Positions 31,087-40,136 of a stretch of 64,000 nucleotides of DNA are shown in pieces. Location: NCBI GenBank assembly GCA_046753845.1, contig JBHHUP010000003.1:6236-70235 (forward strand), given 5' to 3'. The notes beneath the pieces are model-generated. The model saw only the letters and a program-made list of their open reading frames with translations, had not been told where the DNA came from and searched no databases. This DNA is from Thermodesulfobacteriota bacterium (GTDB lineage: Bacteria > Desulfobacterota > GWC2-55-46 > JADFVP01). Position 1 is the stretch's first letter. Each line of letters opens with the position of its first letter. Made by a program: the position numbers and the translations under genes.

Positions 31087-31193
31087 CTCATCCTCTTTAA
31101 CAGGAAAGATAATTTTTTAACTAACTAAAAATACCTCATCAAGGCCAGCCGGCTCAAAATACCCGCCCTCATTAACCTCTCCACCATCTTCCT

Positions 31194-31257
31194 ACTCATC
31201 TGCCAGCCACATATGCCTGCCTTACCATCCTCCTGCTCATCTGCCAACCATATACGC
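31194..31257 (-). promoter_or_regulatory. pair of 23-bp imperfect direct repeats in the flgB upstream/leader region (candidate regulator binding sites)
   Basis: ctcatctgccagccacatatgcc (31194-31216) and ctcatctgccaaccatatacgcc (31235-31257) are 19/23 identical with a 41-bp offset. They lie in a strongly pyrimidine-rich (plus strand) tract. Confidence 0.45.
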
Positions 31258-31330
31258 CCAAGATCCCTGCGCCTATCTCCTTTAGATCCAGGACCCGGAG
31301 ACCATAACAGTGGCTGCCAGGGATATTAAT

Positions 31331-33662: not shown

Positions 33663-36083
33663 CTATTGTCCCCTGTTTTGCGCTATGGTAAGGGCCTCGG
33701 CCCACTCGCCGTAGGAGTTATATTTCTTCTTAAGTTCACTTACCGCCCGCACCGCCTCTTCGTCCATGCCGGCGCCTGCGTAGCTAAGTGATAAACGGTA
33801 CCTTGCCCATCTATCAGCGGCAAGAGAGAGATTATCCGCCATTGCAGCCGCCTCGGAGTAAGCCACCGCGGCGGCGGCGTATCCTCCGGAGATAAAGAGA
33901 GCGTCTCCGTACCCTGTCTTTGCCTCCAAAAGTCCTGCCCTGTCATTGATTTTTTTGTACTCCTTAATGGCCCGTGAATAAAGAGCCTTAGCCTCGCGCC
34001 ACCTGCCAAGCGCCTTATTGGCTCCGGCTCTCATGAGAAGACAATTAGCCCCCGTCCTGCCGCTGCCAAGACTTATCACCTCTTTATAATTACCCTTCAG
34101 GTACTGAGTCTCAATATAATACTCAGCCCAGAGAGATGCGTTCTCGGCTGCAGAGGAGATGCCCCTTGTGTCCTCAAGAAGCTTAGCCGCCGAGTTAAAG
34201 TCTCTCTGATCAAGATAGATACGTGCCAATGAGAGGTTTGCCTTCACTCTTATATCCCGGCGGCCGATTTTACCGGCTTTGCCAAGTGCCATAACCGCGT
34301 CAGGAGTAAGCCCTACTCTGTAGAGCGCTTCACCCACCCTCAGAAAATTTTCCGCCCTCTTGCCAAATGAGATCCAGTGGCCATAACGATAGTTAACGGT
34401 TACCACCTCAAGCCATTTTTTTTGCTTATACAGCTCCTTAAGCCAGTTATAAGCTGTCTTAGAGCGCAGCAGCCCCATCATCTCTGCGCCGGTGGCAAAA
34501 GGATAGAGAATAAAAAAATCGTCAAGGGCCTTCATGGCCTCGCCATGCTCCTTTAAGTCTTCAAGGACACCGGCAAGGGACAAGAGGGCTTCAGAGGATC
34601 CTATGGTCCTTGCGCCCGCCACCTCTCTATAGAGGTCTCTGGACTTTATAAGTATATGGTCGTCATGGGAGTAATAATCCGCAAGGGCGAGCATGGCCAT
34701 GGCAGCCCCCTCGCCATCGCCTCTCTTTTGAATTTTGGTATAACGCGTAACAGCCTCGTCAATATTACCGCCGGCCAGGATGGTGTCAGTCTCTCTCAAG
34801 GCAAAAAAAGACTCTATAAGGGACTGACCTCTAAAGCGTGTTCCAAGCCCCTTGAATATAATGCCCGCCCCCTTGTAATCACCACGCATCATCTTCAGGT
34901 CTGCAAGTCCCATGAGACTTAGAGGGTCTGTGAAATTATCAAGCTTTTCGTAATAAGACCATGCGGTCTTGAGCTCTCCTTTTAAAAAAAGCGAATCAGC
35001 AAGCCACGCAGCGGCTTCTTTAGAACCATCTTTACGGGCCTTTTTAAACCACTCTCTTGATTCGCTTACCCTGCCTGAAAAAAAGAGTACACGCCCTCTG
35101 CCAAGGGCGGCCGAGGCATGGAGCTTTTTCACACTCTTAGCCTCATAGGCCATGCCATAAAAGGCCATGGCCTCAGGATAGAGCCCCTCTCTCTCATAAG
35201 ACGAAGCAATAAGAAAGTGTACCATCGGTGTAAGGCCGTTCTCAGGGATACTTAAGAGGTCTGTCTCTACATAAGTATTAGATACGTCTTTTTTGATAAG
35301 CAAGATTATATCCTGAAGCGTCCTGGCACGAGGCATCTGCCCCTCTTCAGTAAGAGTTCTGAGATAACCCACGGCATCCATACCCTCTGTCCAACCCTTT
35401 AGGTGAGTTATTGGAAGATACTCACCTATCGTATCAAGGGCGGGGTCAGGGATATTACCGTAATAGTAATCCGTGAGGCGCTGCACCGTAGCCACTCTAT
35501 ACCTCCATCTCCAACCTTTATTGTAGAGAAGCGTATGTTTTCCCTCCTTGCTGTAAGGCTTAAGTGTAAACTTTTCTTCCTGGTTTTTTTTTGTCTTTGG
35601 CTTTACAAAATTAGATTTTCCGGCAAGGTGAGACTTCTTTACATTGGAGTGTGTGACCGTGGCGGCAGGCGCCGGTGTATGTGCTTTTTCGGGATACATA
35701 TCCACAACAATTCTGTATGGCTTATCCATAGTCCAGTACCTGACGCGAGCCATATTCTGCTTAAGTTCAACAAAAAAACTCGTAACAGGGGTATCACCAT
35801 CACTTTTCGTAGATACCTTTGTGAGTCTAAATAAATCCGTTCCGGCGTTACCGCCGCTAAATCCCTTGGACTCTATACCAAGAACTGATACTTCAATGGT
35901 CCTGCCGGTTTTTTTTGTACGATACCCGGCTTCGCTTCCGAGCTCTATCACAAGCCTGTGAAAATCTCTGTGCTCACCCGCCCTTGTTGAGAGAATATCT
36001 CCCTTGTCTCCGCCAGAGGCCGGCAAGAAGGTAGAGATAGATAAAAGAGGTATTATGATTATATACAGAATATACTTCAGCAC
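33663..36083 (-). CDS. secreted TPR-repeat protein with N-terminal AMIN-like domain
   Basis: 806 aa, GTG start with a GGAGGAG SD. Signal peptide 'MLKYILYIIIIPLLSISTFLPASG'. N-terminal 'FRLTKVSTKSDGDTPVTSFFVELKQNMARVRYWTMDKPYRIVVDM' resembles AMIN beta-domains. The remainder is TPR-like helical repeats (many A/Y/G-rich pairs). Confidence 0.6.
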   Translation of the reverse strand: MLKYILYIIIIPLLSISTFLPASGGDKGDILSTRAGEHRDFHRLVIELGSEAGYRTKKTGRTIEVSVLGIESKGFSGGNAGTDLFRLTKVSTKSDGDTPVTSFFVELKQNMARVRYWTMDKPYRIVVDMYPEKAHTPAPAATVTHSNVKKSHLAGKSNFVKPKTKKNQEEKFTLKPYSKEGKHTLLYNKGWRWRYRVATVQRLTDYYYGNIPDPALDTIGEYLPITHLKGWTEGMDAVGYLRTLTEEGQMPRARTLQDIILLIKKDVSNTYVETDLLSIPENGLTPMVHFLIASSYEREGLYPEAMAFYGMAYEAKSVKKLHASAALGRGRVLFFSGRVSESREWFKKARKDGSKEAAAWLADSLFLKGELKTAWSYYEKLDNFTDPLSLMGLADLKMMRGDYKGAGIIFKGLGTRFRGQSLIESFFALRETDTILAGGNIDEAVTRYTKIQKRGDGEGAAMAMLALADYYSHDDHILIKSRDLYREVAGARTIGSSEALLSLAGVLEDLKEHGEAMKALDDFFILYPFATGAEMMGLLRSKTAYNWLKELYKQKKWLEVVTVNYRYGHWISFGKRAENFLRVGEALYRVGLTPDAVMALGKAGKIGRRDIRVKANLSLARIYLDQRDFNSAAKLLEDTRGISSAAENASLWAEYYIETQYLKGNYKEVISLGSGRTGANCLLMRAGANKALGRWREAKALYSRAIKEYKKINDRAGLLEAKTGYGDALFISGGYAAAAVAYSEAAAMADNLSLAADRWARYRLSLSYAGAGMDEEAVRAVSELKKKYNSYGEWAEALTIAQNRGQ

Positions 36084-36297: not shown

Positions 36298-37698
36298 TCA
36301 GGAATCGAGTCTCAGCCCTTTTCTCTTCATCTTTTCTATAAGGGTTGTCCTGTTGAGCTTCAAGAACTTGGCCGCGTTTTTCTTAACGCCATGCACCATG
36401 CCCAGGGCGTTGATAATCAGGTCCGTCTCGAACTTATCTACAACGGAATTAAAGTCAAGCCCCTCAGGGGAGATATAGACACGGTAATCAAAGCCCTTAA
36501 CGTGTTTTCTTGAGAGGAGAATCGTAGCCTTTTTGATGTTATCAGGGAGATCGTTTTCCACCACCTCGCCTTTTTCTTTAAGAACAACGATCCTCTCTAT
36601 AACATTTTCCATCTCACGTACATTACCGGGCCACTCATACTCCTCAAAGAGCCTCATAGCATTTGGAGACACTTTGGTTACGTCTTTATTCTTTGACTTC
36701 GAAATTGATTTGAGAAAATGTTTGATGAAGACAGGTATATCTTCTTTTCTCTCCCTTAAGGGGGGCATATCTATCGGGATTACATTAAGTCTGTAATAGA
36801 GATCCTCACGAAATTTTTTCTCCTTGATGGCCTTGGTGAGGTTCTGATTAGTGGCGGCCAGAACTCGGATGTCTACCTTAATAGTCTTTCTTCCGCCAAC
36901 CCTCTCGAACTCCTTTTCCTGCAGAACCCTCAGTATTTTGACTTGCAGGCCGGGGCTCATATCACCTATCTCATCAAGAAAGACCGTTCCGCCGTTGGCG
37001 GCCTCGAACCTGCCTATCTTCGTGGCTATAGCCCCTGTAAAGGCGCCTTTTTCGTGACCAAAGAGCTCACTCTCAAGGAGGTCTTCGGGGATGGCGCCGC
37101 AGTTTATGGGTACAAAGGGCTCACTGGACCTGTTGGACCCAAAATGCAGGGCCCGAGCCACTATCTCTTTACCTGTACCGGACTCGCCGAGGATAAGAAC
37201 AGTGGAGTCCGTATCTGCTACCTTGTTAATGATGCTTCTAACATGTTCTATCTTGTCGCTGGTGCCAAGGATACGGTCTATTAGCTTACGGCTTATGTTT
37301 CTTTTAAGCCTGAGATTTTCAGCAGTAAGCTCACTCACCTCAAAGGCCTTCTCAATGGTTACGAGGACCTCGACTTTATTGTAGGGTTTTTTGATATATG
37401 AAAAAGCTCCGGCGTTTAATGCATCCATGGCTTTTTTTATAGAGCCGTCGCTGGGAATAACAACGGCGCTCGTACTGGAGCTGGCACCTGTTATTGCACG
37501 GACGAACTCTATATCATTTATATCCGAGATGTTAAGATCGGCTATTACAACGTTGGGGGCGTTTCTTCTGATGTAGCTTATCGCGGCATCGGGTTTTTTT
37601 ATTGTATTAACAAAATAATCCTCGGCGCGAAAATTTTCTTTAAGGAACTTAGACATCGAGCCATCCTCTTCGACTAATAGAACATTCCTTTTCCTCAT
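36298..37698 (-). CDS. sigma-54-dependent transcriptional activator (FleQ/FlrA-like master regulator)
   Basis: 466 aa. Atypical N-terminal receiver-like domain. AAA+ 'GESGTGKE', 'GAFTGA', 'EWPGNVREMEN'. C-terminal HTH. Confidence 0.85.
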   Translation of the reverse strand: MRKRNVLLVEEDGSMSKFLKENFRAEDYFVNTIKKPDAAISYIRRNAPNVVIADLNISDINDIEFVRAITGASSSTSAVVIPSDGSIKKAMDALNAGAFSYIKKPYNKVEVLVTIEKAFEVSELTAENLRLKRNISRKLIDRILGTSDKIEHVRSIINKVADTDSTVLILGESGTGKEIVARALHFGSNRSSEPFVPINCGAIPEDLLESELFGHEKGAFTGAIATKIGRFEAANGGTVFLDEIGDMSPGLQVKILRVLQEKEFERVGGRKTIKVDIRVLAATNQNLTKAIKEKKFREDLYYRLNVIPIDMPPLRERKEDIPVFIKHFLKSISKSKNKDVTKVSPNAMRLFEEYEWPGNVREMENVIERIVVLKEKGEVVENDLPDNIKKATILLSRKHVKGFDYRVYISPEGLDFNSVVDKFETDLIINALGMVHGVKKNAAKFLKLNRTTLIEKMKRKGLRLDS

Positions 37699-37829
37699 CC
37701 ATATCTCCTTTTATAAGAATATGATATCGAGGATGTATCTCAAGATGAAAGTATTTAGTAATATGCCGCGATGAATCTTCAGTGATGAGTGGTTTTTAAA
37801 GACAACGAGATGAAGACTGCCAATCCCTG

Positions 37830-38120
37830 ATGCAATTCAGACTCAGGTACAACTTAGGCCCCGGTGTTATTTAGACCCATGTGTGATTTAGTCGAGTTGA
37901 AATATAGCCCAGGAGCAATTTTGGCCAAGATGCAATTTAGTCGAGAGGCAAATCAGGCCCGATGAAACTTAGACCCATGTGCAATTTAACCAAGGTGTGA
38001 TGTAGTCGAGTTGAAATGTAGCCCCGATGCAATGTAGCCCAGGAGCAATGTTGGCCCAGGTGCAATGTTGGCCCAGGTGCAATGTTGGCCCAGGTGCGAT
38101 TTTAGCCCAGGTGCGATTGC
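37830..38120. repeat. degenerate tandem array of about 18 copies of a 16-18 bp unit (consensus approximately GTGCAATKTWGSCCMRG), including three perfect 17-bp copies
   Basis: The perfect copies gcaatgttggcccaggt x3 are at 38045-38095. Degenerate copies (tgcaatttagtcgagag, gtgcaatttaaccaag, gaaatgtagccccga and others) extend upstream. The array lies in the divergent region between the FleQ-like gene and motA2. Confidence 0.8.
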
Positions 38121-38247
38121 GTGATGTTGAGCATGCCAGAGTTGGGTGAGATATCCGAGGTGTAAAAATATTGTACTTTAAAGGTGCGGGACTGTCAATA
38201 TGAAAATTAAATAGTCTAATTTGTGACACAGAGGCTGTGCCATGCGG

Positions 38248-38285
38248 TGCCGTGAAGTTTTGCGTGAAGTTTTGCGTGACGTTTT
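38248..38285. repeat. 12-13 bp direct repeat x3 (TGCGTGAAGTTTT)
   Basis: tgccgtgaagttt tgcgtgaagttt tgcgtgacgtttt, about 60 bp upstream of the sigma28 -35 element of motA2. Confidence 0.6.
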
Positions 38286-38343: not shown

Positions 38344-38370
38344 TAAAGTTTTGCTCCATGCATCCGATGT
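38344..38370 (+). promoter_or_regulatory. sigma-28 (FliA) promoter upstream of motA2B2
   Basis: TAAAGTTT-N11-TCCGATGT against consensus TAAAGTTT-N11-GCCGATAA, about 95 nt upstream of the motA2 ATG. Confidence 0.6.
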
Positions 38371-38465: not shown

Positions 38466-39320
38466 ATGTTTCCCATAATAGGATTAGTCGTAGTTTTTGG
38501 TGCCATAATCGCAGGTTACACAATGGAGGAAGGTAACTTTTCTATTCTCATACAGCCAGCGGAGCTCATTACCATCGGCGGAGCGGCCATTGGCTCTCTT
38601 GTTGTCTCATGCCCGTCAAATCTCTTAAAAGACGTCTTTAAGGCCATCCCGGCCATCATAAAAGGGAGTACTCTCAAGAAGAGCCATTACATTTCACTAC
38701 TAACGCTATTATACGGTATTTTTTCAAAGATAAAAAAAGAGGGCCTGCTATCTGTAGAAAAAGATGTGGAGAGCCCAAAAACCAGTCCCCTCTTCAAAGG
38801 CTGTAAGGATATCATGAAAAATCACCATGCTCTGAATTTCCTATGCGATAACTTGAGGGTATTTATCATAGGCATTAAGCCTACGGAGATGGAAGATCTA
38901 ATGGATATTGAGATGGACAGTCACCACGAGGAGGCTGCTGTTACCCCCGGCATCATCACCAAGGTTGGCGATGCCCTTCCGGGATTCGGTATTGTTGCGG
39001 CGGTGCTCGGGATTGTCATTACCATGGGTAAGATGAGTGAAGGCCCAGAGGTCATCGGGCACAGCGTTGCCGCTGCACTTGTAGGGACATTTCTGGGAAT
39101 ACTTCTGAGTTACGGTGTAGTTGGTCCCCTTGGCAGCCACCTTGAGCACAAGAACAGAGAGGACGGCAAATACATAGAGACCATAAAGATAGCGCTTCTG
39201 GCCTTTGCCAAGGAGCTGCCGCCTCAGATGGCGGTAGAGGCCGGAAGAAGGACAATATTCAGCGGGGCGCGGCCATCCTTCAAGGATCTTGAGGACGCTA
39301 TCAAGAAAAACAAAAAATAA
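38466..39320 (+). CDS. motA: second flagellar stator protein MotA
   Basis: 284 aa, four TM helices, 'GFGIVAAVLGIVITMGKMSEGPEVIGHSVAAALVGTFLGILLSYGVVGP'. Confidence 0.85.
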   Translation: MFPIIGLVVVFGAIIAGYTMEEGNFSILIQPAELITIGGAAIGSLVVSCPSNLLKDVFKAIPAIIKGSTLKKSHYISLLTLLYGIFSKIKKEGLLSVEKDVESPKTSPLFKGCKDIMKNHHALNFLCDNLRVFIIGIKPTEMEDLMDIEMDSHHEEAAVTPGIITKVGDALPGFGIVAAVLGIVITMGKMSEGPEVIGHSVAAALVGTFLGILLSYGVVGPLGSHLEHKNREDGKYIETIKIALLAFAKELPPQMAVEAGRRTIFSGARPSFKDLEDAIKKNKK

Positions 39321-39332
39321 TAAGGTCTGGTA

Positions 39333-40136
39333 ATGGAAAGCAACGAGACTCAGCCCATAATAATTAAGAAGGTCATTAAAAAAGGGCATGGCGGCGGCCA
39401 CCACGGCGGAGCGTGGAAGGTTGCCTATGCCGACTTTGTAACGGCCATGATGGCTTTTTTCATGGTGCTCTGGCTTGTGGCCATGATGAGCATTGAGGCC
39501 AAGAAAGACATGGCCGAGTACTTCAGGAGTTATACTATATTTGAGGGTACCGAGGCCGGCGGCGGTAAAGGCGTCTCCATCATGAGCGGTAATCCTGTCC
39601 TGCTAAATAAGGCATCGGAGGTTACGACGCCCAAACCAAGCTCCAGCTCGTCAAGCAGCCTGAGTATTCTGCTTACAAAATCAATTAACACTCACCTGCG
39701 TGAATTAAAGGATCAGATACTTATATTTTCAACTAACGACGGGGTAAGACTTGAGCTTGTAGACCTTGATGACAGCCCAATGTTTGAGCGCGGCGGCGGA
39801 AGGCTTGTACAGAGGGGCGAGGAGGTCTTCAAGGTCCTCGCTGAATCTCTAAAGAAGATGCCTTACAAGATAGCCATCGAGGGACATACGGACAGTTTCA
39901 AGTTCGCCAATAAGGAGCATACGAACTGGGAGCTCGCCGCCGAGAGGGCCAACAGCGCAAGAAGGGAGCTTATAAAGAACGGCCTTGATGAGAAACGCAT
40001 CTCCAGGGTATCGAGTTTTGCAGACGTAGTACCCTTAAACGGAAGAGATACCTTTGACCCCATCAACAGGCGTGTAAGTATTCTTGTGCAGAAGAACAAA
40101 TACTCACCCGGGGCAGAAGACGATATCTTCAGGTAG
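39333..40136 (+). CDS. motB: second flagellar stator protein MotB (OmpA-like)
   Basis: 'WKVAYADFVTAMMAFFMVLWLV' and the OmpA motif 'IEGHTDSFKF...NWELAAERANSARREL...NRRVSILV'. Confidence 0.85.
   Translation: MESNETQPIIIKKVIKKGHGGGHHGGAWKVAYADFVTAMMAFFMVLWLVAMMSIEAKKDMAEYFRSYTIFEGTEAGGGKGVSIMSGNPVLLNKASEVTTPKPSSSSSSSLSILLTKSINTHLRELKDQILIFSTNDGVRLELVDLDDSPMFERGGGRLVQRGEEVFKVLAESLKKMPYKIAIEGHTDSFKFANKEHTNWELAAERANSARRELIKNGLDEKRISRVSSFADVVPLNGRDTFDPINRRVSILVQKNKYSPGAEDDIFR

Follow-up and report, generated by a model that had tools for sequence, protein, structure and literature searches.

Here we describe an array of short tandem repeats in a 64-kb stretch of Thermodesulfobacteriota DNA (the window, to whose full length all coordinates refer unless a related contig is named). 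It lies directly 5′ of the gene for a sigma54-dependent activator which, from its place in a flagellar gene cluster, is a candidate master regulator of flagellar expression. The array appears to fall within a long untranslated leader of the activator messenger RNA, where it would constitute a cis-regulatory tract prone to contraction and expansion; we hold this reading tentatively, its chances being good but somewhat short of even. The features that it draws upon, read from the sequence and its relatives, are the following.

37832..38112, minus (activator-sense) strand: tandem array of 17 abutting units of 16-17 bp, from a dynamic-programming parse whose contiguity was checked base by base.
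38045..38095, minus strand: three identical 17-bp copies of GCAATGTTGGCCCAGGT, starting at 38045, 38062 and 38079 (exact match).
38113..38124, minus strand: degenerate remnant of an 18th unit, GCGATTGCGTGA on the plus strand (sequence reading; below the threshold of the parse).
38198..38170, minus strand, pointing toward the activator gene: sigma70-type promoter TTGACA-17-TACAAT, 11 of 12 consensus positions (sequence scan and conservation).
38144..38163, minus strand: block ACACCTCGGATATCTCACCC at the 5′ end of the leader, with the first copy of the core CAYCYYGR; relatives have CAYCTCGAAWWAATC.
37717..37747, minus strand: block 5′ of the Shine-Dalgarno sequence with three motif copies at 12-nt spacing, CATCTTGAGATA CATCCTCGATAT CATATTC, present in all eight lineages compared below.
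37696..37709, minus strand: Shine-Dalgarno sequence AGGAG (37709..37705) and start codon ATG (37698..37696), from sequence reading.
36298..37698, minus strand: activator of 466 aa with the architecture REC-sigma54 AAA+-HTH_8 (Pfam), master-regulator candidate by synteny.

On the activator-sense strand the consensus of the array is ACCTGGGCCTAAATTGC, i.e., ...TTG-CAYCnnGG-..., and conservation across the 17 diverged units is uneven, with G and T columns that are invariant. A preliminary description of this DNA had counted about 18 units of 16-18 bp; the array is real, and the count becomes 17 full units of 16-17 bp plus the remnant. The three perfect consecutive copies were described correctly, as was the distance between array and start codon (134-414 bp from 37698). 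The identical units occupy the end proximal to motA and to the promoter and the diverged ones lie toward the activator gene, so that the decay gradient seen at first is broadly right, although it is not monotonic. Tandem Repeats Finder (TRF) reports a 17-bp period at 37974-38114 (8.6 copies, 78% matches), a younger core at 38028-38114 (5.2 copies, 90% matches) and a 65-bp higher-order period over 37898-38068. The autocorrelation of the array has its top peak at lag 17, followed by 114, 16, 49, 98 and 65, and the higher-order periods of 65 and 114 bp indicate that multi-unit blocks were duplicated as well as single units. When the 64 kb were searched for the 17-mer with up to three mismatches, five matches were found, all within the array, where 0.14 would be expected and none of 100 shuffles reached five; at this threshold the unit, considered also as a possible dispersed intergenic repeat of the REP/BIME kind, has no copy elsewhere in the window.

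The position of the array relative to the transcription signals was assessed in eight lineages: the window itself, L005, L006/L007, L008, L009-L011, L092, L094/L098/L099 and L097, the relatives being orthologous loci whose activator is 87-93% identical. A promoter TTGACA-N17-TAYAAT is found at the same place in L006/L007, L008, L009-L011, L092, L094, L097 and L098, and in every related locus that reaches that far it stands 330-490 nt 5′ of the start codon. Since this conserved promoter precedes the array and is directed toward the activator gene, the array would be part of the leader: transcription is predicted, from the conservation of the promoter, to start near 38163, which would place the array at about +52 to +332 of an untranslated leader of 465 nt. 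Conserved blocks also span the first ~20 nt of this leader and the ~35 nt before the Shine-Dalgarno sequence; between the conserved blocks, the DNA from the promoter to the ribosome-binding site cannot be aligned across lineages.

The array had initially been placed in a control region shared by the activator and the divergent motA, as upstream promoter DNA. Its location downstream of the conserved sigma70 promoter, within the predicted transcribed leader, speaks against the latter, and an action on motA is unlikely because this gene is served by its own promoter, about 230 bp from the array and beyond the promoter of the activator.

38344..38370, plus strand: sigma28 (FliA)-type promoter TAAAGTTT-N11-TCCGATGT for motA/motB (sequence reading).
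38466..40136, plus strand: motA-motB pair (Pfam), divergent from the activator gene.

This motA-side promoter, which follows the sigma28 consensus, is conserved in the relatives as TAAAGTTT-N11/12-CCGATGT, and a fliA gene lies within the window; its conservation suggests that the stator pair is probably a late, FliA-dependent operon. A further conserved signal is found on the activator side.

38227..38214, minus strand: imperfect palindrome GTCACAAATTAGAC, just upstream of the sigma70 promoter; GTCACTAAACCGAC in most relatives.

The palindrome occurs at the matching position in L006, L008, L009, L092, L094, L097 and L098, and it is the single match to GTCAN[TA]AANNNGAC in the 64-kb window. By eye it resembles the FleQ box consensus of Pseudomonas aeruginosa, GTCaNTAAAtTGAC (PMC6120874), and it could be an autoregulatory site. 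Between this FleQ-box-like site and the motA promoter there is a second small tandem repeat, CGTGAAGTTTTG, of 2.9 copies (95% matches) at 38251-38285, present in the window and in L001, a contig with an identical activator, and not in the other lineages.

The leaders of the related loci are themselves rich in repeats, tandem arrays with units of 17, 16, 15 and 44 bp being found in four of the eight lineages.

Window leader: 17-bp unit, 17 copies.
L005 leader: 16-bp unit CACCCCGGCGTATTTG, at least 8 copies, the contig beginning inside the array; activator 93% identical, flanking DNA only ~72%.
L006/L007 leader: 15-bp unit, 3.3 copies, plus longer repeats of roughly 45 bp.
L094 leader (2546-2792): 44-bp unit TATTTTCATCCCGACATCCACCTCGGCCATTTAGGGGATTCCTT, 5.6 copies, 91% matches.
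L092 leader: scaffold gap of 100 N at about 2619-2718, with repeat-like flanks.

In the leaders of L008, L009 and L097 TRF found no array scoring at least 80. Throughout the orthologous loci, arrays reaching that score occur in the leader only. As a background we used 80 unrelated sigma54-activator loci (390 kb; paralogues at most 47% identical), obtained from a metagenome scan with the activator protein, and these hold only two arrays with a TRF score of at least 80 and a period of at least 10. Moreover, homologues of the window unit can be recognized in L008, as the single-copy sequence CACCTCGGGCTATATTG, and in L094, as part of the 44-mer (CACCTCGGCCATTTAG), which suggests that the arrays are lineage-specific amplifications of elements that already existed in the leader. 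The next-closest homologue, L095/L096 (64% identical), also has the activator followed by genes for a TPR protein and a kinase, with a peptidase gene adjoining. It has only a 161-bp upstream region, with neither a long leader nor repeats; the repeat-rich leader would thus be confined to the clade with at least 87% identity.

Whole-unit variation in copy number is observed in two species, with two different units. Four Logan contigs (L001-L004, runs SRR29324588-93) encode an identical activator, and the comparison of L001 with the window (99.64% identity over 6.1 kb) shows a sole gap, corresponding to one 17-bp unit, with two identical copies in place of three. The other three contigs all terminate within the identical copies, as might be expected of a short-k-mer assembler, whose k is taken here at its customary value, failing where the periodic stretch exceeds k plus the period. 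In turn, L094 and L098, from two Joint Genome Institute (JGI) samples, are exactly one 44-bp unit apart (5.6 versus 4.6 copies, the latter at 867-1069) within flanks 98.6-99.8% identical, and the 5′ end of L099 breaks inside that same array. The comparison of copy number between strains that had been proposed thus gives three versus two 17-mers and 5.6 versus 4.6 44-mers. The idea of an element prone to contraction and expansion is borne out as far as unit number is concerned, both between near-identical strains of this organism and within a sister species; the tuning of expression that accompanied it we infer. Altogether, the tract combines head-to-tail units with identical copies, a number that varies between strains, and a location between a conserved sigma70 promoter and the ribosome-binding site, as in a contingency locus. 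The contig ends and gaps at the leader repeat (L002-L005, L099 and L092) indicate that this region is often lost from assemblies of the clade.

Beneath the differences in unit length, a common core can be recognized, CAYCY(YGR), found in the context CAYCYYGR, often at 12-nt spacing and on one strand. In seven pooled leaders the sense and antisense counts are 36 versus 0 for CATCC, 28 versus 1 for CATCT, 25 versus 0 for TCATC and 18 versus 0 for CACCT. CAYCY exceeds dinucleotide shuffles in all eight leaders, including the three with no TRF array of at least 80 (at most 8 of 1000 shuffles match the observed value), and on the minus strand of the window the density of the motif is highest in the leader. 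One copy is located at the extreme 5′ end of the leader and, in the relatives, a conserved trio CATCTTGAtATA CATCCTCGAtAT CATCTTT precedes the ribosome-binding site AAAAGGAGA, so that motif copies bracket the variable part. The distance between copies is 12, 15, 16, 17 or 44 nt, with no constant helical phase. Furthermore, the leaders have more C than G (a ratio of 1.43 in the window and of 1.1-2.0 among lineages), and the pattern RGRTG, resembling a Shine-Dalgarno sequence plus start, is absent from the sense leader of the window and occurs at most once per sense leader elsewhere, with only about one to be expected by chance.

From these elements a mechanism can be proposed in which transcription from the sigma70 promoter would yield an untranslated, unstructured leader of ~465 nt containing the repeat-expanded segment. 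The units would be a multimerized form of a short pyrimidine-rich leader element with the core CAYCY(YGR), which every relative carries in the same orientation at the 5′ end and immediately ahead of the ribosome-binding site, with a varying number of copies between the two. The copies would most likely act in cis as a landing pad, multivalent and single-stranded, on which a trans-acting factor would bind the RNA. This factor, be it a motif-specific RNA-binding protein, a small RNA (sRNA) or Rho, would set the amount of full-length, translatable master-regulator mRNA. Slipped-strand mispairing would gain or lose whole units, as the units are head-to-tail and partly identical, and such changes may give rise to heritable, graded, rheostat-like variation of flagellar expression within the population. 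The transcription of the leader, its action at the RNA level and its effect on expression are what we infer. Action on the RNA is favored by the strict orientation of the motif, by the spread of its copies all the way between +1 and the ribosome-binding site, by the lack of helical phasing and by the unstructured, C-rich character of the leader; irregular spacing would be easier to reconcile with a flexible RNA than with DNA bound cooperatively. As regards the factor itself, Rho is a generic candidate: the leader is untranslated, unstructured and has more C than G, rut-like features that are permissive, not specific, and Rho would not account for the conserved G-R with which the core ends. A motif-specific protein or an sRNA would be of greater interest as a candidate. 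It is conceivable, if rather doubtful, that an RNA-binding regulator as yet undescribed, either a protein or an sRNA, recognizes the CAYCYYGR units within the Thermodesulfobacteriota flagellar hierarchy, and that the leader is a multivalent single-stranded platform through whose expansion and contraction lineages retune motility. The bank of binding sites envisaged in the preliminary description is plausible, on RNA or on DNA.

Several points weigh against this proposal of a tuned RNA landing pad. The transcription start is a prediction. L009 and L097 have no array, so a large copy number is not essential. The motif was defined after inspection of the data, which makes the shuffle statistics optimistic; short-read assemblies may miscount tandem repeats, and each polymorphism rests on one contig. 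Among the scanned window open reading frames (ORFs) there is no Pfam match to CsrA, FliW or other RNA-binding families. Finally, sequestration of the Shine-Dalgarno sequence by anti-Shine-Dalgarno-like repeats, the simplest self-contained RNA mechanism, is unsupported: in every lineage the sequence is predicted to pair with a CAUCU-type copy, though no more than in shuffled leaders.

The alternative that survives best, although we consider it doubtful, is that of a neutral variable-number tandem repeat, in which a long leader tolerates insertions and slippage on existing short direct repeats makes and erodes arrays with no effect on expression. The turnover is indeed fast, with units and periods changing among lineages that share 87-93% identity in the activator; L009 and L097 are array-free, the copies decay away from the young end, their number is polymorphic, and neither a structure nor a known family has been found. 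All this would be expected of a neutral tract, but neutrality accounts poorly for arrays at this one spot in at least four of eight lineages against two in 390 kb of control loci, and for a shared core motif of single orientation that is enriched even in array-free leaders. Nor does it fit well with the uneven conservation within the 17 diverged units, with their invariant G and T columns, or with the conserved motif copies that flank the variable part at the leader 5′ end and beside the Shine-Dalgarno sequence.

An action at the DNA level appears unlikely, slightly more so than neutrality. Under this hypothesis the direct repeats would be a set of operators, located past the transcription start, for a DNA-binding regulator or a nucleoid protein, which would repress the master-regulator promoter through a roadblock to elongation or by looping to the promoter-proximal site. 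The motif copy that overlaps the predicted +1, a classic place for an operator, agrees with it, as does the presence in the window and L005 units of TGCACC, which we take to be an NtrC-type half-site. Direct repeats of 35 nt carrying CATCT/CATCC, upstream of flgB-flgC (see below), have the opposite orientation with respect to the gene, and orientation matters less for DNA than for RNA. Nevertheless, copies spaced by 12, 15, 16, 17 or 44 bp share no helical phase, and the majority lie at a distance of 50-450 bp past the promoter, as far as the ribosome-binding site. Dimeric HTH_8 proteins recognize inverted repeats, and the direct repeats of the array do not match this mode of binding. The units are probably not sites for the adjacent activator, whose helix-turn-helix (HTH) domain, unlike the units, does not vary among the lineages, the conserved upstream palindrome being the better candidate.

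A separate non-coding RNA, either structured or acting as an antisense, plus-strand sponge of the CsrB type (the reverse complement of the motif being GGAUG / CAGGAUG), is very improbable: the antisense strands of L006, L008 and L094 are rich in GGAUG or UCAGGAUG strings resembling CsrA sites (36 sense CATCC overall), and CsrA binds GGA motifs (PMC4894983), but only two of the 17 window units have GGA on the plus strand (the others having AGGUG, AAGAUG or CGAUG) and no sense unit has it, no csrA was found among the scanned window ORFs, and between 37500 and 38600 there is no terminator-like site on either strand, nor was a plus-strand promoter found for such a transcript. The structured RNA suggested in the preliminary description, or a leader of the riboswitch type, likewise receives no support, since neither strand of the array nor the full leaders of six lineages fold more stably than shuffles (z-scores from -1.7 to +1.9, none significant) and Rfam gives chance-level hits only, with none at E <0.1 within the array or close to it, whether in the window or in relatives; nor is there hairpin structure beyond chance, as a CsrB/RsmY/RsmZ sponge would have.

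Other identities could be discarded more simply. The array is not a CRISPR, as had been noted, for its 17 units abut with no spacers. It is not a coding repeat, since none of the periods 17, 16 and 44 is divisible by three; the ORF at 37969..38229, already taken as a mere translation of the repeats, has no Pfam match, begins upstream of the predicted transcription start, and would be frameshifted by the 17-bp polymorphism between strains. In sigma54 promoters the GG and GC elements are exactly 10 nt apart (TGGCAC-N5-TTGCA). The sense unit CTGGGCCAACATTGCA reads GG-N9-GC, and the 16-mers have even less, so that the spacing is too short for the array to be a series of such promoters.

Among known systems, the closest analogue would be the 7-bp repeat tract of the Haemophilus influenzae adhesin genes hmw1A and hmw2A, a case of graded phase variation. 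In hmw1A the repeats are located downstream of an active promoter and lengthen the 5′ untranslated region, more repeats leading to less expression (PMC8262952). The number of repeats at hmw1A/hmw2A varies between closely related isolates, and the molecular mechanism is unresolved (PMC8262952, PMC2424069). In contrast to their 13-24 perfect 7-mers, the units considered here measure 16-17 bp (15-44 in relatives) and are mostly diverged, with two or three identical; and the gene concerned is the putative top flagellar transcription factor of an uncultured environmental bacterium, instead of a surface adhesin. A functional parallel is offered by the flhDC mRNA of Escherichia coli and Salmonella, whose long untranslated leader is targeted by CsrA and several sRNAs (PMC3634460). 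Both would be long untranslated leaders on the mRNA of a flagellar master regulator, although FlhDC is not a sigma54 activator, its leader is not made of tandem repeats, and there is no sense-strand GGA here.

TRAP of Bacillus recognizes 11 (G/U)AG repeats in the trp leader. Similarly, the leaders bound by CsrA and the CsrB-type sponges carry many GGA sites (PMC4894983). The likeness to these RNAs is one of logic only, i.e., a short motif repeated in an unstructured RNA, a multivalent reader and a copy number that would act as avidity; CAYCYYGR matches neither motif, the spacing is irregular between lineages, and the reader is here hypothetical. In the ctxAB promoter of Vibrio cholerae, TTTTGAT heptad repeats whose number varies between strains are bound by ToxR. 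They have in common with the present array that they are tandem direct repeats of strain-variable number in a control region, but they precede the promoter and work at the DNA level, whereas the array lies downstream of the predicted start.

Concerning the gene neighborhood, the activator has a receiver domain, a sigma54-interaction AAA+ domain and a Fis-type HTH (Pfam); its N-terminus, MRKRNVLLVEE, is conserved among relatives, and its closest database proteins come from metagenome-assembled genomes (MAGs) of uncultured Thermodesulfobacteriota. The identities given at first, a sigma54 activator and MotA/MotB, are confirmed by Pfam, while membership of the FleQ family is supported neither by Pfam, which matches an ordinary Response_reg domain and no FleQ-specific model, nor by NCBIfam, where the best hits are models of the AtoC/NtrC type and every equivalog stays below its cut-off. 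To call it a FleQ-like master regulator is thus a reading of gene order, as a candidate, and not a family assignment; its position presumably corresponds to that of flrA/fleQ in the clusters of Vibrio and Pseudomonas.

The window holds a polar-flagellum cluster with flagellin glycosylation genes of the NeuB/Maf type, flagellin, FliD, FliS and a PilZ protein. Next come motAB, encoded on the other strand, and then the activator, a TPR protein of 806 aa, a histidine kinase and a second receiver-sigma54 activator. The rod genes comprise a 134-aa ORF with no Pfam match (flgB by position), a rod protein with a FlgEFG-type domain (flgC-like) and FliE, and the export genes FliJ, a FliQ-family protein, FHIPEP (flhA-type), an SRP54-type GTPase (flhF-like by position) and a MinD/ParA-type ATPase (flhG-like); further on are FliA, chemotaxis genes and a second motAB pair. 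The order PilZ-motB-motA <> activator-TPR-kinase is kept in the relatives.

Some side observations on this cluster can be added. It includes two motA-motB stator pairs, at 29-1500 and 38466-40136, and the one beside the array is the sole flagellar operon on the plus strand of the window; a look-up of the exact MotA protein of the window gave no match. The TPR protein (33663-36083), located between the master-regulator candidate and the kinase/second-activator pair, is present in all relatives with 759-848 aa, and a search of contigs with it yielded one distant relative only. We know of no equivalent of this insertion in the flrABC arrangement of Vibrio or the fleQSR arrangement of Pseudomonas. 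Upstream of the flgB-flgC-fliE operon, at 31183-31258, there are two 35-nt direct repeats ACCATCTTCCTACTCATCTGCCAGCCACATATGCC, 86% identical and 41 nt apart. They carry CATCT/CATCC on the plus strand, so that the leader of this operon reads GGAUGG/AGAUGAG. A pairing of the activator leader with this GGAUG-rich leader was rejected, the duplex energy being no better than with shuffles, by a method ill-suited to long RNAs.

To our knowledge, heritable tuning of expression driven by repeats has been described almost exclusively for host-adapted pathogens and surface structures. The present case differs from the known systems in its longer and mostly diverged units, in arrays independently rebuilt in several species around one short motif, in the sigma54-type target and in the uncultured environmental clade. 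In addition, as the tract breaks or gaps short-read assemblies at a regulatory region, it would be systematically under-represented in MAGs. If the landing-pad reading is true, the shared motif would provide a handle toward a post-transcriptional regulator of sigma54-type flagellar hierarchies, and a contingency locus would stand atop the flagellar cascade in free-living environmental bacteria. If the number of units sets the output of the regulator, populations could maintain both motile and non-motile states as a form of bet hedging, with no signalling input.

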